A stretch of DNA of 64,000 nt from Terriglobia bacterium (GTDB lineage: Bacteria > Acidobacteriota > Terriglobia > JAJPHL01 > JAPKYU01): assembly GCA_965223005.1 (NCBI GenBank), contig CBDCVK010000010.1, positions 1,019,656-1,083,655 on the forward strand, given 5' to 3'. The notes under the pieces were generated by a model, which did not search any database, was not told the origin of the DNA, and saw only the letters and a list, made by a program, of their open reading frames with translations. A program made the translations under genes and the position numbers. Of this stretch, positions 43,230 through 60,879 are shown one piece after another. The first letter of the stretch is position 1. Each line of letters opens with the position of its first letter.

Positions 43230-43322
43230 TGGCGGTGAGGGAGGGATTCGAACCCCCGGTCCCGGGGCTACCAGGACAGCCGCTTTCGAGGCGGCCCGAT
43301 TAAACCACTCTCGCACCTCACC
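43230..43322 (-). tRNA. tRNA-Ser (anticodon CGA), 93 nt, with a long variable arm and encoded CCA
   Basis: rc reads GGTGAGG-TG-CGA-GAGTGGTTTAA-TCG-G-GCCGC-CTCGAAA-GCGGC-[21-nt variable arm with a 7-bp stem]-GGGGG-TTCGAAT-CCCTC-CCTCACC-G-CCA. All stems pair and the T-loop is canonical. Confidence 0.85.
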
Positions 43323-45300: not shown

Positions 45301-47032
45301 TCACTCGGTTGCGGCGCTCCGCGTATGCGCGAACGGAATGGATCCGGGCTCGGAGGCACGAGGAAGGTTCGGTTTCCCCAGGGTCAGCGGAAGCTCCAGC
45401 TGGAACACCGAACCTCCTTCGGGTACCGATTCGACCCCGACCGTTCCCTGGTGCGCCGTGATGATTTCATACACAATCGCCAACCCCAGGCCGGTGCCAT
45501 TGGTGAAGGCGGACTGGAACGGCTCGAAGATTTTTCCCGGAAGGGCCGGGCTCAGCCCGACACCGGTGTCGTGGAAGCGGATCACGCCATGCCCGTCGGC
45601 GCGGACCGTTTCCACCTTCAGCTTGCCGCCCTCGGGCATGGCCTTCAGCGCGTTGTCGCAGATATTCCAGAAGACCTGCTTGATGGCGTCGAGATCCACC
45701 TGGGCCACCAGCGGCTCGGCCACAAAGACGCGCTCGAAGCGGATGCGGCCCGCGTCGGGATGGTTCTCCAGCAGGACCAGTGTTTCTTCCAGCAGCCCAT
45801 GCAGGTCAGCCGGGCGAAACTCATAGCGGCGTTCCCGGGAATAGCTCAGAAAATCGGAGACGATGCGATCCAGGCGCTGTGACTCCTTCACGACGATCCC
45901 CACCAGTCGCTGCTGTTCACTGGGGAGCGAGCCCAGGGTGGAAAAGACCTTGATGGAGCCGGCGATCGAGGTCAACGGGTTGCGAATCTCGTGGGCGATG
46001 GCGGAAGCCATGCGGCCCAGTGCCGCCATGCGCTCCTTCAGCCGGACCTCTCGCTCCAACCGCTTCAGTTCGGTCAAGTCCTGAAAAAAGTAGACGTGCC
46101 CCTGCGAGGCATGTCCCTGTCCGCTGCTGTCAGGCCAGGTGAGCTCCGACACGCTCACGCGCAGGTATTTCTCCTGCCCGCCGGGAGTGAAGATCTCGAC
46201 CTCCTGTGCCGGGGCATTCAGCGATAGGCGAGCGAATTCCGGCAGCACCTCCGCCAGCGGCCGACCCACGGCGGCAGCAGGCGAGCGCTCCAGGGTCAGC
46301 GCGGCGGCCCGGTTCAACAGCAGTACGCGTCCCCCCAGGCCGGTGGTCACCAGCCCGCCGGCCATGCTGTCAATCACGTTCTCGTTGAACGCCTGCAGGT
46401 TCTCCAGCTCGCCGCTGGCGGCCTGAAGCCGGGTGCCAGTCTTGCGCAGGTTCTCCACCAGACTGCTGGAAAGGTAGGCCATCGCCAGGAAGGCAAACAG
46501 GTTGGTAAAGATTCGCACCTGCAAGTCCTGCAGCTCCGGCGTCATTTCTGAAAGCGCAAGGAGAAAATCCTTCAACTCGTTATACAAGGAGAGTTCCAGC
46601 GTGGCCCCGGCCAGAATGAAGCTGAGGCTGGCGACCAGGTACGTCCCCGCCCTCGACAGCGAGATAGCCGCCAGGATGATCACCAGCGGGTAGAGGAAAA
46701 AGTAGGGGCTGCCCACCCCCCCGCTGAAATGGATGACCGCCGTAATCATGCAGATGTCGCAGATGATCTGCAGGTAGGACTGCATGGTGTAGTCGGTGGA
46801 GAGTTTCAGCAGCAAGCTGAAGAAGATGGTCAGCGCATACCAGAACAGGACAGTGAAGACGAACCATCGGACCGGGATCTGAGCCTGGGTTAACTGCGCC
46901 ACCGCCAGTTGGATGCATCTGAGCCTGGGTTAACTGCGCCACCGCCAGTTGGATGCCGAGCAGGAACGTAATAATGACGATCCGGACGCGGATCAGCCAC
47001 AGCAACCACTGCCTCTGATTTAGCGCTTCCAT
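45301..47032 (-). pseudogene. Membrane sensor histidine kinase (NtrB/AtoS-like, PAS + HisKA + HATPase), disrupted by a 40-bp perfect tandem duplication near its 5' end
   Basis: True N-terminus MEALNQRQWLLWLIRVRIVIITFLLGIQLAVAQLTQAQ (ATG rc 47030-47032) is in a different frame from the body MAQLTQAQIPVRWFVF... Deleting one copy of the 40-nt repeat (46877-46916 = 46917-46956) restores a single ORF. H-box MASAIAHEIRNPL. Confidence 0.6.
46877..46956. repeat. Perfect 40-bp tandem duplication within the histidine-kinase 5' region
   Basis: atctgagcctgggttaactgcgccaccgccagttggatgc occurs twice back to back. Confidence 0.95.
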
Positions 47033-47050
47033 CCCCGAGCGATCGCGGCC

Positions 47051-47059
47051 ATTATAGCA
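47051..47059 (-). promoter_or_regulatory. Extended -10 element TGCTATAAT upstream of the histidine kinase (very short leader)
   Basis: rc of attatagca. The same GTGCTATA core recurs upstream of infC and hup. Confidence 0.35.
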
Positions 47060-47187
47060 CCCGAGGCTACGGGATGTTGCCGTCGGCTACCTGTGGTAGC
47101 CGGAAGTGTAGCGCATTCCAATTCCTTGCAAGCTGTTCTATCATTAGGAGAAAACTGCCGATCTCCGATGAAGCTCTGGAGGTTTGA

Positions 47188-48007: not shown

Positions 48008-49513
48008 TCAGATCGGAGTGCAGACCGACTTCACTTCGGTGTACGCCTCGAGCACTTCATGTCCCATCTCGCGCCCCCATCCGGATTGTTTGTATCCGCC
48101 GAAAGGCAGCGCCGCATCAAAGATGTTGTAGCAGTTGATCCAAACGGTGCCCGCACGGAGTTGAGAAGCAATGCGGTTTGCCTTTTGAATATCGCGGGTC
48201 CATATGCCTGCCGCTAATCCGTAGATCGTGTCGTTTGCTTGCGCAATGAGTTCATTTGCGTCACGAAACGGAATGGCAGTTACTACCGGGCCGAAGATTT
48301 CCTCTTGGACTACCTTCATTCTTTCGTTGGTATTCACCAACACTGTCGGCTTTACAAAATATCCCTTCTCGCCGAGCCTGCTGCCTCCAACGACTGCCTT
48401 GGCTCCTTCTGAAAATCCGGATTCCAGGTAACCGCAGACCCGATTCAATTGTTCCTCGGAAACCAGGGGGCCCATATCAGTGGAGGACTCCAAACCAGGG
48501 CCGACATGGATTTTTTGGGCTTGTTCGGCGATGCCTTCCACCACCTTGTCAAATGATCCTTTCTCGATGTACAGCCGGGACCCGGCAGAGCAGCACTGAC
48601 CGTGGTTGAAGAATATTGCGCTCGCCGCGCCAGGAATCGCGGTTTGCATATCAGCATCGTGCAACACAACGTTCGGCGATTTGCCGCCAAGTTCCAGAGA
48701 GACCTTCTTGAGATTTCCGGTGGCCGCTTGAATGATCAGCTTTCCTACCTCGGTGGATCCAGTGAACGCAACTTTATCCACTTTCGGATGAGCGGCTATC
48801 GCTGCGCCAGCCGTTTCTCCGTATCCTGGAACGATATTGACAACTCCGTCAGGGAATCCTGCTTCCTGAATCAGTTCGCCGAGTCGAATAGAGGTGAGAG
48901 GCGTCTGCTCGGCCGGCTTCAAGACCACCGTGCAGCCAGCCGCCAGCGCCGGGCCAAGCTTCCAGGCGGCCATCAAGAGCGGGAAATTCCATGGGATGAT
49001 CTGTCCAACAACCCCCACCGGCTCGCGCAGGGTATATGCGAGGTATTTCACGCCGGGGGTGTAGGGGACAGAAATTGGAATCGTATTTCCTTCGATCTTT
49101 GTCGCCCACCCGGCCATATAGCGAAATAGGTCGACCGCAAGTGGTACGTCGGCGGCGCGGGCAACTTTGAGCGGCTTGCCATTGTCCAGAGACTCGAGTT
49201 GAGCGAACTCTTCCAGATTCTTTTCTAGGAGATCAGCGAGCTTCCAAATGAGACAGCCGCGCTCCGAGGCAGTGAGCCTTGACCACGGCCCGGTGTCAAA
49301 TGCAGCCCGGGCCGAGTTAACTGCGCGATCGATATCCTCTCGGTCTCCCTCGGCAACCTGGGAAAGAACTTCTCCGGTCGCCGGATTATAGGTTGCAAAT
49401 GTCTTTCCCGACGCAGATTGCACCCACTTTCCATTGATGAGCATCTTTTGAGTTGTTGAAACAAAGCGGGTTACCTTGTCATCCAACTTATGGGTTTGCG
49501 TGGCAGTGGCCAT
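48008..49513 (-). CDS. NAD(P)-dependent aldehyde dehydrogenase
   Basis: 501 aa with LELGGKSP, catalytic Cys GQCCSAGSR and EEIFGPV. Confidence 0.9.
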   Translation of the reverse strand: MATATQTHKLDDKVTRFVSTTQKMLINGKWVQSASGKTFATYNPATGEVLSQVAEGDREDIDRAVNSARAAFDTGPWSRLTASERGCLIWKLADLLEKNLEEFAQLESLDNGKPLKVARAADVPLAVDLFRYMAGWATKIEGNTIPISVPYTPGVKYLAYTLREPVGVVGQIIPWNFPLLMAAWKLGPALAAGCTVVLKPAEQTPLTSIRLGELIQEAGFPDGVVNIVPGYGETAGAAIAAHPKVDKVAFTGSTEVGKLIIQAATGNLKKVSLELGGKSPNVVLHDADMQTAIPGAASAIFFNHGQCCSAGSRLYIEKGSFDKVVEGIAEQAQKIHVGPGLESSTDMGPLVSEEQLNRVCGYLESGFSEGAKAVVGGSRLGEKGYFVKPTVLVNTNERMKVVQEEIFGPVVTAIPFRDANELIAQANDTIYGLAAGIWTRDIQKANRIASQLRAGTVWINCYNIFDAALPFGGYKQSGWGREMGHEVLEAYTEVKSVCTPI

Positions 49514-54158: not shown

Positions 54159-54802
54159 TGCCGGTTGCTTCTGAAACTGTGGAGAAAGTTCCGGGCGTCG
54201 GGGGACGTGGCCCGCGCGACGGCGGCTTCGGTGATGAAGGAGGCCGTGCCGGTCCCCAACCCAACCGGCGCGTCTACCGCACGGGTATCTGGATTGCCCT
54301 GGCGCCCATCATGATGATGTTTGTCGCCTTTTCCAGCGCCTACATCGTGCGCCGCGGCCTCGGCAGGGACTGGCAACCTCTGGAGCTGCCTGCCATCCTG
54401 TGGCTGAATACGGCGCTGCTGGCAGCCAGCAGCCTGGCCCTGGAGCGCGCTCGCGATTGCTTGAACCGCGGGCTGCGAGACGGGTTTAGCCGCTGGTGGT
54501 CGGCGACCACAGCCCTAGGCGTGGCGTTCCTGCTCGGCCAACTGGGTGCATGGTGGCAACTGACGGATCGTGGCGTCTATCTGGCCAGTAATCCCAGCAG
54601 CTCGTTCTTTTACTTGTTGACGGCCACTCACGGCCTGCACCTACTGGGCGGGGAAGTGGCGCTGTTGTATGTGGCCTTCCAGGCGGCGCGCTCGGGAGTG
54701 GGTCCGGCCCCGCGCACCGCGGTGGACGTGAGCGCCGTCTACTGGCATTTCCTGGGCGGCTTGTGGGTCTTCATCTTTTTGCTGCTTCTGGTTTGGAGGT
54801 AG
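54158..54802 (+). CDS. Heme-copper oxidase subunit III-family protein (first of two)
   Basis: 214 aa multi-TM. TGATG overlap with coxA. Subunit-III-like helices (YWHFLGGLWVFIF). Confidence 0.65.
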
Positions 54803-54808
54803 GGAAAA

Positions 54809-55432
54809 TTGTCTGACGCAATAGCACAAGCTCGGGCGGAGATTTGGGGCGGCGGAGTACGCCCCTATGCCGTGCCCTCCAAGAAGCTGGGCATGTGGCT
54901 GTTCATCATCTCTGACTCACTCACCTTCTCCGCGTTATTGGTTACCTACAGCTACGTGCGCCTGGCCAGCGTTGACTGGCCCACCCCGTTTCATGGCTCC
55001 AGTATCGCGCTGGCCAGTGTCATGACCTTTTGCCTGCTGTCCAGCAGCTTGACCATGGTGATGGCGGTTGCCGCTGCCCATCAGGACCGTCGCAAGCAGG
55101 CCGCGCGGTGGCTTTTCGCCACCATCGCGGGCGGCCTGGCGTTTATTGTTCTGCACGTGAATGAGTGGCTCGGTCTGATCCATGAGGGGATGACCCCGTT
55201 CAGCAACCCGTGGGGTACGCCCTTATTCGGAGCCACCTTCTTTGCCCTGACCGGCCTGCACATGACCCACGTCGCCATCGGTGTGATTTACCTGACGATC
55301 GTGGCCCTGGGGTTCCGCGCCGGTCGCTGGAGTGGAACGGACGTGGAGGTCAGCGGGCTGTACTGGCATTTTGTGGATTTGGTCTGGATGTTCATTTTCC
55401 CGCTCGTCTACTTGATGTCGACCAAGATCTAG
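54809..55432 (+). CDS. coxC: Cytochrome c oxidase subunit III
   Basis: 207 aa with LTGLHMTHV...GLYWHFVDLVWMFIFPLVYL. Confidence 0.75.
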   Translation: MSDAIAQARAEIWGGGVRPYAVPSKKLGMWLFIISDSLTFSALLVTYSYVRLASVDWPTPFHGSSIALASVMTFCLLSSSLTMVMAVAAAHQDRRKQAARWLFATIAGGLAFIVLHVNEWLGLIHEGMTPFSNPWGTPLFGATFFALTGLHMTHVAIGVIYLTIVALGFRAGRWSGTDVEVSGLYWHFVDLVWMFIFPLVYLMSTKI

Positions 55433-56102: not shown

Positions 56103-56840
56103 ATGCTGCTGAACTTGGAGACAGATGCATTGCTCGTCGTAGACGTGCAGCCTACTTTCATGCCCGGTGGCGGCTTGCCTGTGGCGGAGGGCGATCAGGT
56201 CGTGCCAGTGGTGCGGAAACTGATGCAGCGCTTCCCGACGGCGAGCCGCTTCGCCACCAAGGAACAGCACCCTCGGGGGCATATTTCTCTGGCCAGCTCC
56301 TATGTCGGCTCTGCCCCAATGGCGCTGCTGACGGGGGCCACGGTCGCCACCTGGACCGACGCTCGGCATTGCCTTGCCCCGAACGCCCAGTTCACGCTCG
56401 CCGATTTGAAACAATACCTCAGCCAGGTGCAGGTGCAGATGCTTTGGCCCGATCATGCCCTTGCCGGCACGGCGGAAGCGGAACTGCACCCGGCGCTTTC
56501 GGAATCGGAATTCGCCTTTGTCCAGGTGAAGGGTATGGACCCGAAGTGCGACTCCTACAGCGGCTTTTTCGACAACCTCCGGCGTCCCAAGAGCCTGGCC
56601 GACCAGCTCCGGCAGAGCGGCATCCGACGTTGCTTCTTCGTGGGGTTGGCGTTCGACTACTGCGTGGGCTGGTCGGCTGAAGGGGCGGTATCCGAGGGCT
56701 TTGAAGCGGTGGTCGTTGAGGATGCGACGCGAGCGGTCAGGTTTCCCACCGGAAGCGTCGACAAGATGCGCGCCTCCTTCCGCGAGAAAAACATTGCCGT
56801 GGTGCGCTCGGCCGACCTCAAGATGTCCACCGTGGGCTAA
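56103..56840 (+). CDS. Isochorismatase-family cysteine hydrolase (nicotinamidase-like)
   Basis: ALLVVDVQPTF ... catalytic Cys in FFVGLAFDYCV. Confidence 0.65.
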   Translation: MLLNLETDALLVVDVQPTFMPGGGLPVAEGDQVVPVVRKLMQRFPTASRFATKEQHPRGHISLASSYVGSAPMALLTGATVATWTDARHCLAPNAQFTLADLKQYLSQVQVQMLWPDHALAGTAEAELHPALSESEFAFVQVKGMDPKCDSYSGFFDNLRRPKSLADQLRQSGIRRCFFVGLAFDYCVGWSAEGAVSEGFEAVVVEDATRAVRFPTGSVDKMRASFREKNIAVVRSADLKMSTVG

Positions 56841-56864
56841 CTTTACCTTTGCCCGGAGGGCGCG

Positions 56865-59018
56865 ATGAAGGCAAGAAGAGTCTTTCTATTTTTCAGTTTA
56901 CTTCTCGTCAATAGCGAAGCAGGAATTTCCGGTCAAGCTGGTTCAGGCCCACACCTGGGACAGTCTATCTCCGTAGATGTCGCGAAGAATCTGGACCGGT
57001 TGATCGCCGAAGAGGACACAGATGGCGACAAGAAAATTACAGTTGAAGATACTTATGTAAAAGAAGAGGAACGTGGAGATAAGCGTTTTTGGCTCTTGTC
57101 GACAACCGAGAAATGCTACGAAGTGATCGGAACATATTATTTGTCCAACTTGCTCCAGGAACTGAAGCTGGCCCAGGAGGCTGGATCTCAGCACGCACAA
57201 ATTGAGTTTCAGAAACTCTTTGAGAGTCCTGTCCGGCGAGTTTCCCGCTCCATTCGTGAACTTTACTGGGATGGCCTGACGAGGCGCGTCGATGAGAAGA
57301 ACCTTGAGCAGGCCTTAAGGGACGAGAAAGTTACAGGTAGCGGGTTGCACTACCTATATGTGCCTGCTGGGGATCCGGAGGCCTATGAGTACTTTTCGAA
57401 GGTGGCCGAGCAGCAACCAGACCGTCGGCTGCGGGTGGAGCGCCTGCCGAGGCGGATCACACCACAATACGTCAGACAAAATCTTGAAGGCAGACATGGG
57501 CTTTTGTGCCTGGCGCTGGAAAGGACATCAAAAGGTGAGCACCGCGGAGTTCCGTTTGTGGTGCCGGGAGGGCGTTTTAATGAAATGTACGGCTGGGATA
57601 GCTACTTTGAAGCGCTAGGTTTGCTGGAAGATGGCCGCGTCGATCTAGCGAAAGCCATGGTGGACAATTTCGTTTACCAGATTACTCATTATGGCAAGAT
57701 CCTGAATGCCAACCGCACCTATTACCTCACGCGTTCCCAGCCTCCTTTTCTTACCTCGATGGCGTTAGCGGTCTACGATCGCCTGCCAAAGAGGACCGAA
57801 ACCAAGACCTGGCTCAAGAACGTTCTTCGAGCGGCAATCAAGGACTACTACACGGTGTGGATGAGCAAACCACGATTAACCGAGACTGGGCTCAGCCGTT
57901 ACTACGGGAGTGGCCTCGGACCACCTCCGGAAGTCGAAGAGGACCACTTTGATGCGATCTACAAACCACATGCAGATCAACGCAAGTTGGACGTGCGAGC
58001 ATTCGAGAAGAAGTATAACGCCGGTGAAATCAGAGTCCCGGAACTGGACGAGTTCTTTGTTCACGACCGATGCGTCAGGGAATCGGGACACGACACAACC
58101 TACCGCTGGAGTTGGGACGGAGATCGCTGTGCTGATTTTGTCACAATCGACCTCAATTCGCTCCTCTATAAGATTGAGGTAGATATAGCAAACACGATAG
58201 AAAAGGAGTTCGGTGGGACGCTGAGGCGAGCCGACGGTTCTGTCGAGACCAGTTCGATTTGGGGTAGACGAGCAGCAAAACGTAAGGTTCTCATCAACAA
58301 GTACCTCTGGAATAATGAGCGAGGCATGTTTTTCGACTATGACTTCAGAAATAAGAAAAAGCAGCATCTCTTTGTGAACGCCACCACGTTGTATCCTCTC
58401 TGGGCCGGCTTGGCATCTCCGGACCAGGCGAAAAAGGTTGTGGAAAACGCCTTGCCGATGCTGGAACAGGCGGGGGGCATCGTAGGTTCAACCAAGGAAT
58501 CGCGCGGTCCACTCTCGGAGTCTCGACCGGCGCGCCAATGGGACTATCCCAACGGATGGGCACCACATCAGATGTTGGCCTGGCGTGCGTTGTTAAATTA
58601 CGGCTTTAATCAAACTGCGCAACGTGTAATTTACCGCTGGTTATACACAATTACCAGAAATGCGGCAGATTATAACGGGACAGTTCCAGAGAAACTGGAT
58701 GTGATCACAAGATCGCATAAGGTCTTTGCGGAGTATGGCAACGTGGGAGTGGAGTTTGCCTATATTACGAAGGAAGGCTTCGGCTGGATGAACGCATCCT
58801 ACCAAGTGGGACTTAGACTTCTCTCGGCGGATCTACGGATGCATCTGGAGCGGCTTGTTCCTCCTGAGTGGCTCTTGCCTTTCTTCAATATTCCCACAAG
58901 CTCTCAGGGCATCTCCCACCCGGCATATCCCCACCACCGTTTGCCGGGCAGCTTTTTCGGAATAAGTGGCTTTAGAAACTCAATCGACTTTTCAAGTCCC
59001 TCTTTGACATCAAAATAA
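56865..59018 (+). CDS. treA: Alpha,alpha-trehalase (GH37) with a signal peptide and a neutral-trehalase-type Ca-binding motif
   Basis: GH37 signatures PGGRFNEMYGWDSYF and QPPFLTSM. DTDGDKKITVED matches the DTD.D.QIT.ED motif of fungal neutral trehalases. The gene is markedly AT-richer than its surroundings. Confidence 0.85.
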   Translation: MKARRVFLFFSLLLVNSEAGISGQAGSGPHLGQSISVDVAKNLDRLIAEEDTDGDKKITVEDTYVKEEERGDKRFWLLSTTEKCYEVIGTYYLSNLLQELKLAQEAGSQHAQIEFQKLFESPVRRVSRSIRELYWDGLTRRVDEKNLEQALRDEKVTGSGLHYLYVPAGDPEAYEYFSKVAEQQPDRRLRVERLPRRITPQYVRQNLEGRHGLLCLALERTSKGEHRGVPFVVPGGRFNEMYGWDSYFEALGLLEDGRVDLAKAMVDNFVYQITHYGKILNANRTYYLTRSQPPFLTSMALAVYDRLPKRTETKTWLKNVLRAAIKDYYTVWMSKPRLTETGLSRYYGSGLGPPPEVEEDHFDAIYKPHADQRKLDVRAFEKKYNAGEIRVPELDEFFVHDRCVRESGHDTTYRWSWDGDRCADFVTIDLNSLLYKIEVDIANTIEKEFGGTLRRADGSVETSSIWGRRAAKRKVLINKYLWNNERGMFFDYDFRNKKKQHLFVNATTLYPLWAGLASPDQAKKVVENALPMLEQAGGIVGSTKESRGPLSESRPARQWDYPNGWAPHQMLAWRALLNYGFNQTAQRVIYRWLYTITRNAADYNGTVPEKLDVITRSHKVFAEYGNVGVEFAYITKEGFGWMNASYQVGLRLLSADLRMHLERLVPPEWLLPFFNIPTSSQGISHPAYPHHRLPGSFFGISGFRNSIDFSSPSLTSK

Positions 59019-59887
59019 TCGCACTCCATCTCGATCGAGAGGGCCCCTTCGTAGCCGACGAACTGCAAAGCCGATAGGAAGTCGCGCCAGAACAGCTGGT
59101 CGTGGCCCCACCCGACCAGCGCGAACACCCAGGAACGCCCACCAGGTGTCATATGGGACGCGGGGTCAAGGAGGCCTTGTACTGCCATTCGGCCACGATC
59201 AAAGCGAATATCTTTGACGTGAACGTGAAGGATTGCATCGGACAAGAACTTGACCACCTCGATCAAGTCCATGCCCTGCACAAACAGGTGCGACGGATCC
59301 AAGTTGCAACCGATCACCGGTCCAACCGCCTCGCGCAGCCTCATCAGCGTCTGCGGGGAGTAGACGAGATCACAGAGCTGGGGCTCGACCGCCACCTTGC
59401 AGCCGTGGTCCTCAGCAATCTTTCCGTGTTCACGCCAATAGGGGATCAGGCGCTGTTCCCACTGCCAACGCGTAATGTCGTGGCTGAAGGTCTTGGTAGA
59501 GTCGGCGACCCAATAAGGGGTCGTCTCCCCGGGACCAGCCTCTGGAAGACCGGACAATACCACCAACCGGTCGACACCAGCCGCTTCCGCCAGTCGGCAA
59601 ATCTCACGGAACCCCCGGGAGTACGCCTCCGCCACCTTCTTGTTGGGCGACAAGGGCTCACCATGCGCACAGAACGCGCTTATTTCCAGCCCGTGCTGTT
59701 TGAGCTTATCCAGCCATCGGTTCAGCTCGCCTTTGTCCTTGAGAAGCTTTTCGGTGTCGCAAAACTTGCGTGCGGGCTCTTCCAAAACCCCAACCTCAAT
59801 CGTCTGCACGCCACGCTTCTGGAGGAAATCCAGCGCCTCCTCGAACTCAAAGCACAAAAGAAAAAAGGTATTGACGCCAAGTTTCAT
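58904..59887 (-). CDS. Sugar-phosphate isomerase/epimerase (xylose-isomerase-like TIM barrel)
   Basis: From the internal Met MKLGVNTFFLL... The 3' end overlaps the convergent trehalase ORF by ~115 nt. Confidence 0.6.
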   Translation of the reverse strand: MKLGVNTFFLLCFEFEEALDFLQKRGVQTIEVGVLEEPARKFCDTEKLLKDKGELNRWLDKLKQHGLEISAFCAHGEPLSPNKKVAEAYSRGFREICRLAEAAGVDRLVVLSGLPEAGPGETTPYWVADSTKTFSHDITRWQWEQRLIPYWREHGKIAEDHGCKVAVEPQLCDLVYSPQTLMRLREAVGPVIGCNLDPSHLFVQGMDLIEVVKFLSDAILHVHVKDIRFDRGRMAVQGLLDPASHMTPGGRSWVFALVGWGHDQLFWRDFLSALQFVGYEGALSIEMECDYFDVKEGLEKSIEFLKPLIPKKLPGKRWWGYAGWEMP

Positions 59888-59911
59888 ACGAACTTCCCTC
59901 CGAAAGGGTCG

Positions 59912-59960
59912 CCAGGCTGATGGGCCGGGTTGATGGCCAGGTTGATGGCCAGGTTGATGG
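59912..59960. repeat. 12-nt tandem repeat ccaggttgatgg (~4 copies) upstream of, or in the N-terminus of, the TIM-barrel isomerase
   Basis: Encodes HQPGHQPGHQPG in the extended minus-strand ORF. Confidence 0.75.
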
Positions 59961-59991
59961 GTGGTGGCACCCTTTGCCGCTTCTTCATTTC

Positions 59992-60879
59992 TCACCCGAT
60001 GCCGATTTCGCGCAGGTAAGCACGTGTCCGCTTGGCGATGGGTAGCGGTTTATCGAACGCCGTCGGATACATGTCCTGTTCCACAATCGCCCAGCCGTCG
60101 TAAGCAATCTCCTGCAGTGCATCGCGATAAGCGACAAAATCTACCATCCCTTGGGCCGGTTCGCAAAAGATGCCCATTTCGGTGGCCTTGTTCAAGGGTA
60201 TGCGTTCTGCCGCCACTTTCGCGCGGATCTGGGGGTCAATGTTCTTCAGGTGCATGTACCGGATCCTAGCGTGATGTTTCCTCAGAAAAGCAACAGGGTC
60301 TCCCCCGCCATAGGCATGGTGACCAGGGTCCAAGCAAAGGGAAACGCGCTGCGGGTCAGTCTGTTCCAAAAGGGCTTCGATCTGGTGCTCATGCTGGACA
60401 TGGGTCTCGACATGGGGATGAAAAACGAGGTCCAGCCCAAAGCGCTCGTGGACCAGATCGGCCAGTGTCTGTGTCGTATGGATCAACCTCTTCCATCCGT
60501 CTTCGTCAAGACGGCTCGGGCCCGTCGGCTTGCCGGTGTGCAGATCGATGTAGACGTCGTCGAGGAGCATCACATATTTTCCGTCCACACCCGCCATCAT
60601 TGCACCCACTTTGAGCGCCTCTTCTTTTATGACTGGCCACAACGCCGGATCTTCCAGCGGTAGCATCACGTCGCATGCGACTGCCTTCAGATTTCGCCGT
60701 TCCAGTTCCGGGCGAAGAATCTTCGGATCCGTGGGCAGATAGCCGTACGGGGCAAGTTCGATCCACTCATAATCTGCCTGGATGAGTTCATCCAGAAATC
60801 GCTGCCAAGGGATTTGTTTAGGATCGCTGGCAAAGTTAACGCCCCACGAGCAGGGTGATGAGCCGATTCTGACTTTCAT
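59992..60879 (-). CDS. Sugar-phosphate isomerase/epimerase (xylose-isomerase-like TIM barrel; IolI/inosose-isomerase-like)
   Basis: 295 aa AP-endonuclease-2/XI-like fold (HPHVETHV, LDPGH). Confidence 0.65.
   Translation of the reverse strand: MKVRIGSSPCSWGVNFASDPKQIPWQRFLDELIQADYEWIELAPYGYLPTDPKILRPELERRNLKAVACDVMLPLEDPALWPVIKEEALKVGAMMAGVDGKYVMLLDDVYIDLHTGKPTGPSRLDEDGWKRLIHTTQTLADLVHERFGLDLVFHPHVETHVQHEHQIEALLEQTDPQRVSLCLDPGHHAYGGGDPVAFLRKHHARIRYMHLKNIDPQIRAKVAAERIPLNKATEMGIFCEPAQGMVDFVAYRDALQEIAYDGWAIVEQDMYPTAFDKPLPIAKRTRAYLREIGIG

Follow-up and report, generated by a model that had tools for sequence, protein, structure and literature searches.

A calcium-domain trehalase gene in an uncultured Terriglobia bacterium, probably acquired from another bacterium and belonging to a widespread bacterial family

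A 64,000-nucleotide stretch of DNA from an uncultured Terriglobia bacterium (Acidobacteriota; contig CBDCVK010000010.1, positions 1,019,656 to 1,083,655 of the forward strand), hereafter the window, carries a complete gene for a trehalase of glycoside hydrolase family 37 (GH37). At a probability of roughly 0.78, we read its product as an exported, Ca2+-stabilised member of a bacterial family resembling the yeast neutral trehalase Nth1, and the gene as laterally acquired from another bacterium. The analysis is built on computed homology, domains, conserved catalytic and Ca-ligand residues, purifying selection, a compositional anomaly, synteny and a mosaic of divergence along the locus.

In yeast, 14-3-3 binding and Ca2+ orient the Ca domain of the trehalase and so stabilise the active-site lid (PMC9523730), and a 2024 review sets the regulation of Nth1, with its calcium binding, apart as unique when compared with the trehalases of prokaryotes (PMC10847541). 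For bacteria, a review of trehalose breakdown names only TreA and TreF among the GH37 enzymes, the TreA of Escherichia coli converting external trehalose to glucose (PMC10969515), and a 2026 evolutionary survey that pooled all GH37 enzymes reports extensive transfer among prokaryotes (PMC13237430). No description of bacterial Ca-domain trehalases was found in our literature search.

The trehalase and its calcium-binding domain

The gene and its product comprise the following features, all on the forward strand.

56865..59018, forward: complete trehalase open reading frame, 717 amino acids in a single reading frame, guanine plus cytosine (GC) content 51.3%, GC at third codon positions (GC3) 0.57
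56855..56859, forward: Shine-Dalgarno sequence GGAGG, 5 nt before the trehalase ATG, by direct reading of the sequence
56865..56921, forward: predicted Sec signal peptide, residues 1-19 (MKARR, core VFLFFSLLLV, NSEA, then G20)
56970..57254, forward: N-terminal Ca2+-binding domain, residues ~36-130, aligning with Nth1 residues 100 to ~195
57015..57050, forward: EF-hand-like loop DTDGDKKITVED, residues 51-62, matching Nth1 D114-D125
57207..58868, forward: GH37 catalytic domain, residues 115-668, from PF01204, motifs and fold matches
58092..58094, forward: codon of D410, predicted catalytic acid in an ESGHD motif, aligning with Nth1 D478
58689..58691, forward: codon of E609, predicted catalytic base in a PEKLD motif, aligning with Nth1 E674
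58878..59018, forward: lineage-specific C-terminal read-through, residues 672-717 plus stop, antisense to the 3' end of a convergent AP_endonuc_2 gene

By homology, the protein is a GH37 alpha,alpha-trehalase of the neutral trehalase (Nth1) type with an (alpha/alpha)6 barrel. The Pfam model PF01204 (GH37 trehalase) covers residues 115-652 with 490 bits against a cut-off of 21, and both GH37 signatures, which we take to be PGGRFxExYxWDxY and QWDxPxGWAPxQ, are present as PGGRFNEMYGWDSY (residues 234-247) and QWDYPNGWAPHQ (residues 558-569). Both motifs are invariant in an alignment of 23 clade members, as are D410 and E609, whose correspondence to Nth1 D478 and E674 was counted through pairwise alignment with Nth1; these two yeast residues are reportedly the catalytic acid/base pair. 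In a search of solved structures the top four matches are all Saccharomyces cerevisiae Nth1 (607-638 bits, best E 1e-190), and the three Nth1 constructs with the Ca domain align to residues 36-37 through 668 of the window protein. The alignment with E. coli TreA reaches 162 bits and begins only at residue 201, and the NCBIfam models for TreF (210.5 bits against a cut-off of 512) and TreA (205.1 against 941 and 195.9 against 560) are missed widely. A previous reading of the locus, made from the letters of the DNA alone (the sequence-only reading), had called the gene a GH37 trehalase unlike TreA and TreF, and these comparisons bear it out. An AlphaFold model built from the 23-sequence alignment (mean predicted local distance difference test score, pLDDT, 72.8; predicted template modelling score 0.77) finds its best Foldseek match in 5n6n_C, Nth1 including its Ca domain, at template modelling scores of 0.76/0.78 over 677 columns; the target score is 0.86 for 5jta, 5m4a and 5nis and 0.61-0.64 for E. 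coli Tre37A.

The Ca loop reads D51-T-D53-G-D55-K-K57-I-T59-V-E-D62 and aligns residue for residue with Nth1 D114-D125 within the full-length alignment (E 1e-190), so that its match to the fungal Ca-binding loop, proposed from the sequence, stands. Its presumed Ca ligands correspond to those of Nth1 in the alignment. The Pfam model of the neutral trehalase Ca2+-binding domain, PF07492, scores 23.8 bits (E 3.7e-5), slightly under its curated cut-off of 25, and is matched by 22 of the 23 clade members at E<=0.01. D51, D55, T59 and D62 are invariant among the 23, with T52, D53, K57 and I58 at least 90% conserved, and the loop is thus among the best-conserved parts of the family rather than a non-conserved one. 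Directly after it, the bacterial subclade of the window protein carries a 6-residue insertion (57051-57080, residues 63-72; YVKEEE...RGDK) that ends in a conserved R-G-D-K/R (…YVKEEERGDKRF…); the insertion is absent from fungal and most other bacterial sequences, and model confidence is low there.

Ahead of this domain lies what is probably a Sec signal peptide, which would place the enzyme in the periplasm. Signal-peptide calls were heuristic, from hydropathy and sequence pattern, and the earlier claim of such a peptide upstream of the Ca motif fits what they gave, residues 1-19 being signal-peptide-like and the loop lying at 51-62. Hydropathy peaks at residue 6 (Kyte-Doolittle 3.12 over 10 residues), the syntenic relatives keep both the hydrophobic N-terminus and an AxA-like site, and a hydrophobic segment is seen at the N-terminus of about 19 of the 23 clade members, several of which have lipoboxes. 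The AlphaFold model places a helix at residues 4-15 and a low-confidence linker at 12-31. Export through the Tat system was considered as well, the stretch R4-R5-V-F-L (56874-56888) resembling RRxFL, and set aside; Sec is more likely because close relatives have R-G at the arginine pair and because of the short, very hydrophobic core.

The protein might instead be a cytoplasmic, Ca2+-switched regulatory trehalase that serves internal trehalose stores, like Nth1 or TreF. Its domain plan is indeed that of Nth1, and a few family members show no obvious signal peptide. However, the charged n-region, the 10-residue core (Kyte-Doolittle 3.1) and the small-x-small site are kept in close relatives, several homologues have lipoboxes and the window protein has no phospho-regulatory tail, so we regard this alternative as quite unlikely and retain the exported enzyme.

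At its other end the protein runs past the usual terminus of the family, PPEWLF-xx-stop (PPEWLF-ER*). That stop is kept in one syntenic relative (the long-read contig L081) and lost in the window and in a second (L082), and the window also has a deletion of ~135 bp relative to L082. With the family stop lost, the frame continues for 46 codons, antisense to the 3' end of the AP_endonuc_2 gene, giving a 115-bp overlap. The tail (pLDDT 26-37) is probably unstructured and without function, and the lost stop may be real or a long-read error. The coding sequence is constrained: the ratio of nonsynonymous to synonymous substitution rates (dN/dS) against the two syntenic relatives is 0.18-0.22 and therefore indicates purifying selection, and on this basis, together with the strong Shine-Dalgarno sequence, we take the trehalase to be a working gene.

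A bacterial family beside the fungal neutral trehalases

The window trehalase is, as judged from its relatives, a member of a widespread but uncharacterised bacterial variant of the Nth1-type trehalase. A search over 5.8 billion proteins gave at least 8000 matches, of which the best 120 all share 61-85% identity with the window protein; the few named ones among these 120 belong to Nitrospira, Nitrospinota, Acidobacteriota and metagenome-assembled genomes (MAGs) of Hyphomicrobiaceae. More than 100 prokaryotic clusters fall at 61-85% identity. In a scan of one genome per prokaryotic species, the enzyme type is encoded in at least 560 bacterial species genomes. The 80 loci that were examined out of these at least 560 confirmed relatives come from Terriglobia, Pirellulales, Ignavibacteria, Kryptoniota, Elusimicrobiota, Riflebacteria and Bdellovibrionota, among others, and include many cultured Flavobacteriaceae, such as Flavobacterium pectinovorum, F. 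hibernum and Salinimicrobium marinum.

The loop DTDxDKKITxxD is present in 79 of the 80 loci, mostly as DTDGDKKITI[ED]D, the exception being a truncated match. Because it is nearly universal in the bacterial loci, the Ca loop is a conserved feature of a large bacterial family and not a eukaryotic insertion, and the label of a eukaryote-type Ca site, which the sequence-only reading had given it, does not survive. The proteins annotated as uncharacterised bacterial 'trehalase family glycosidase' (Flavobacterium spp., Ignavibacteria, Terriglobia, Nitrospira MAGs and others) are the window protein's own family; they are 47-85% identical to it, share the Ca loop and mostly carry signal peptides or lipoboxes. 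Two things set the window gene apart from them, a GC content 11 points below its surroundings, where in the other bacterial hosts the gene matches the genome, and the 46-residue read-through tail. An EF-hand-like N-domain homologous to that of the window protein also occurs in a distant GH37 group (P0247, P0251, P0286 and P0287, a member of the P0286 cluster being named Myxococcaceae) at an hhalign probability of 96.8% (E 2.4e-10). This Myxococcaceae-type group falls outside the Nth1-like clade and joins TreA-like sequences (bootstrap 74), which suggests from sequence comparison that the Ca domain arose before the Nth1-like clade.

For the phylogeny, the window protein, 22 close homologues, 45 representatives from a 50%-identity library and yeast Nth1 were placed in a neighbour-joining tree (608 columns of a quick alignment, Kimura distances, 100 bootstraps). 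The entire Nth1-like group has a bootstrap of 83. Within it, the fungal sequences form one clade with yeast Nth1 (bootstrap 92), consisting of Borealophlyctis (a chytrid), Mixia, Pichia, Pseudomassariella, Amphiamblys and Nematocida (microsporidia) and so covering chytrid, microsporidia, Basidiomycota and Ascomycota. The window protein stands in a separate, purely prokaryotic clade (bootstrap 99). Of the two placements between which the phylogeny had been expected to choose, the fungal Nth1 clade and bacterial TreA, it therefore occupies neither, and in particular it does not nest within ordinary acidobacterial TreA.

The architecture shared with Nth1 (PDB 5jta, 5nis, 5m4a, 5n6n) and with Ntp1 of Schizosaccharomyces pombe is an EF-hand-like Ca domain followed by the GH37 (alpha/alpha)6 barrel, with the loop D-x-D-x-D/N-x-x-I-T-x-x-D, the catalytic Asp and Glu and both GH37 signatures held in common in an end-to-end alignment of 638 bits. 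Where Nth1 has an N-terminal tail of ~95 residues with protein kinase A sites and 14-3-3 binding motifs, however, the window protein has its signal peptide; it also has the post-loop insertion and lies outside the fungal clade, unlike Nth1. Nth1 is cytosolic and switched, whereas the window enzyme is probably extracytoplasmic and constitutive. In fungal sequences more generally, the Ca domain is preceded by a long hydrophilic extension with RRxS right next to the domain; the bacterial sequences lack RRxS. With E. coli TreA (Tre37A, PDB 2jf4) and the cytoplasmic TreF the window protein has the GH37 catalytic domain in common and, like TreA, it has an export signal and would probably convert external trehalose to glucose; in contrast to both, it possesses a Ca-binding domain.

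These results bear directly on whether this bacterium recently received the gene from a fungal or other eukaryotic donor, as the earlier suggestion of an inter-domain transfer would have it. Such a donor could account for the low GC of the gene, for yeast Nth1 supplying all of the best solved-structure matches (638 bits) and for a loop that the literature treats as a fungal feature (PMC10847541). It is very improbable nonetheless, since the fungal clade (92) excludes the window protein, which is placed in the prokaryotic clade (99); since it shares 61-85% identity with more than 100 prokaryotic clusters and only 40-52% with fungal representatives; and since the gene has a signal peptide and a Shine-Dalgarno sequence, bacterial features common across the bacterial clade, and no trace of the fungal RRxS/14-3-3 tail. 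An old transfer in the reverse direction can be entertained, and we give it slightly less than even odds: the combination of Ca domain and GH37 domain would be bacterial in origin and would have passed once to stem Fungi, where the phospho/14-3-3 tail was added.

Probable lateral acquisition and the history of the locus

At 51.3% GC the gene lies about 11 points below the remaining window (62.5%), so the reported low GC (~50%) holds, although the surroundings are not at the ~65% given with it. A GC and codon-usage check, which had been proposed for the locus, singles the gene out: it is the GC minimum among all 2154-bp stretches in the window (mean 62.1%, standard deviation 3.1%) and has the lowest GC3 among open reading frames of at least 200 amino acids (0.57 against ~0.72-0.86 in credible neighbouring genes). 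The deficit is concentrated at third codon positions. Among 36 other bacterial loci with flanks of 32-69% GC, the GC of the trehalase follows that of its flanks closely (r = 0.986, slope 1.02), with differences of -2.2 to +5.1 points against which the -11 of the window is an outlier; because the gene tracks its flanks in these 36 hosts, the family has no built-in low-GC bias. In the syntenic relatives the trehalase has 52-53% GC and its flanks 59-60% (-7 points), and one nearer outgroup shows -8.5 points, the other outgroups being in hosts of ~53-55% GC.

Besides a cox operon, the window has genes for SecA, PheT and ThrRS, and its SecA shares 64-66% identity with its nearest named relatives, which come from Terriglobia, Bryobacteraceae, Bryobacterales and 'Candidatus Acidoferrum'. 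For the trehalase, identities of 63-68% are reached with proteins from MAGs of Nitrospira, Nitrospinota and Hyphomicrobiaceae, in other phyla, a similarity about equal to that between the host SecA and its counterparts in other orders of the same class.

Two neighbouring genes share in the history of the trehalase or overlap it.

56103..56840, forward: isochorismatase/nicotinamidase-family gene, upstream of the trehalase, GC 62.9% (host-like), with raised divergence like the trehalase
58904..59884, reverse: xylose-isomerase-like TIM-barrel gene (AP_endonuc_2), convergent, its last 115 bp overlapping the trehalase tail

The stop of the isochorismatase-family gene and the start of the trehalase are separated by 24 nt, and because of this spacing the two are likely co-transcribed. 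Scans for promoters and terminators gave chance-level results, and an Rfam scan of 50-64 kb matched no family. In both related long-read contigs, L081 and L082, the trehalase has the same position, after the cox genes and the isochorismatase-family gene. It is followed in L082 by the same two AP_endonuc_2 genes and HpcH aldolase gene as in the window; in L081 five transposase genes directly follow it. As these replace the AP_endonuc_2/HpcH genes, the structure of the neighbourhood is plastic. In the relatives, the stretch that follows the trehalase is rich in insertion sequences (L081 12340-19797, L082 19693-22100), and genes of such elements occur in the relatives only.

Nucleotide identity between the window and L082 is mostly 93-99% in the flanks and drops to 81-89% over the block of isochorismatase-family gene and trehalase (56126-58876). 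The boundary of this mosaic is sharp, window 56103-58876 corresponding to L082 9235-12012, and synonymous divergence (dS) rises from 0.07-0.22 in five flanking genes to 0.44 within the block, a factor of 2-6. Because of the identity drop and the raised dS, the block has a deeper history than its surroundings, a pattern in keeping with an older acquisition followed by recombination between diverged relatives. Smaller dips in identity to L082 occur at 54326-54925, 46826-47125 and 59792-60091. The isochorismatase-like gene is 79-100% identical within its own clade and at most 66% outside it, its best named relatives (48-58%) being mostly Patescibacteria (Uhrbacteria, Parcubacteria, Doudnabacteria), plus Binatia. 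A second compositional outlier of the window is an aldehyde dehydrogenase gene (48008-49513, reverse strand; GC 54.8%, GC3 0.60), syntenic in L082.

An old, vertically inherited resident, its GC lowered by selection on amino-acid composition, expression or mRNA structure, could also occupy the same site in several related genomes at 80-85% protein identity, with trehalase identities ranking in the same order as those of SecA (95, 90, 89%) and no mobility genes flanking the trehalase in the window. We consider this unlikely: the family shows no intrinsic low-GC bias (36 hosts of 32-69% GC, slope 1.02), the deficit sits at third positions (0.57 against ~0.75-0.85), the similarity of 63-68% extends over several phyla, and in a distant relative (contig L167; COX4 90% and isochorismatase 79% identical), which has the cox and isochorismatase arrangement, the trehalase was undetected. 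An assembly chimera or a contaminant joined to an acidobacterial contig was also considered; the related contigs are long-read metagenome assemblies, some with frameshifted copies (the split products P0121/P0122), and L167 has 2x coverage. Against this, the same isochorismatase/trehalase/AP_endonuc_2 junctions recur in the independent assemblies L081 and L082, with flanks 90-99% identical, and an identical 717-amino-acid product is encoded on a second contig (3.13 Mb); since identical junctions recur, we judge the chance of a chimera to be close to negligible. Lateral acquisition thus remains the favoured history. The foreign composition and a distant transfer, both put forward in the sequence-only reading, are supported, with the difference that the donor was most simply a bacterium rather than a member of another domain, because the Ca loop is common in bacteria and the clade is prokaryotic.

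Several observations weigh against the reading as a whole. L167 is not a clean empty site, because its downstream genes differ and its coverage is 2x, and a metagenome scan with the isochorismatase-family gene as an empty-site probe returned only relatives of at most 58% identity, without synteny. No integrase, adjoining tRNA or significant flanking repeats were found at the trehalase, the only tRNA of the window lying at 43230-43322, and no trehalose or glucose transporter or regulator adjoins the gene in the window, L081 or L082 neighbourhoods. Three clade members (P0021, P0062, P0105) have no hydrophobic N-terminus, possibly through mis-called starts or as truly cytoplasmic forms. The tree is a quick neighbour-joining tree whose backbone, which relates the bacterial lineages to the fungal clade, has bootstraps of 1-43, and the structural model is only of moderate quality, with low confidence around the latter half of the Ca loop and in the vicinity of D410 and E609. 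Finally, Ca dependence and substrate of the bacterial members would follow by analogy with the yeast and S. pombe enzymes.

Proposed function and significance

From the computed evidence we infer export, Ca dependence, a physiological role, and the identity of the donor and timing of the transfer. In the enzyme as we picture it, the Ca domain (residues ~36-130) would pack against the (alpha/alpha)6 barrel (~115-668), which would supply the acid D410 and the base E609. Ca2+, which is freely available outside the cytoplasm, would fix the orientation of the Ca domain and thereby stabilise the active-site lid, so that the enzyme would be constitutively active and not switched. A constitutive, Ca2+-stabilised periplasmic enzyme is the simplest reading because the Ca domain is kept, the 14-3-3 tail is absent and the N-terminus is of the export type. 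Trehalose of fungal, plant, arthropod or other bacterial origin outside the cell would then be cleaved to two glucose molecules for uptake, a role like that of E. coli TreA. The gene itself may have entered this uncultured Terriglobia (Acidobacteriota) lineage from a bacterium of ~50% GC before the sampled relatives diverged, and may subsequently have been shuffled among these relatives by recombination.

Because the gene encodes an ordinary catabolic enzyme, the wider significance is modest. If the bacterial origin of the architecture were true, the old, diverse and mostly exported bacterial family would add a third class to the bacterial GH37 enzymes, next to TreA and TreF, and the window gene would be one laterally moving member of it. 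The Ca-binding module is standard in a bacterial trehalase family of hundreds of species, including culturable Flavobacterium, and the bacterial Ca-domain trehalases offer tractable systems for studying the role of the Ca domain without the 14-3-3 layer and bear on the origin of the fungal enzyme. To its host, an uncultured acidobacterium of soil type, the gene probably gives access to external trehalose.

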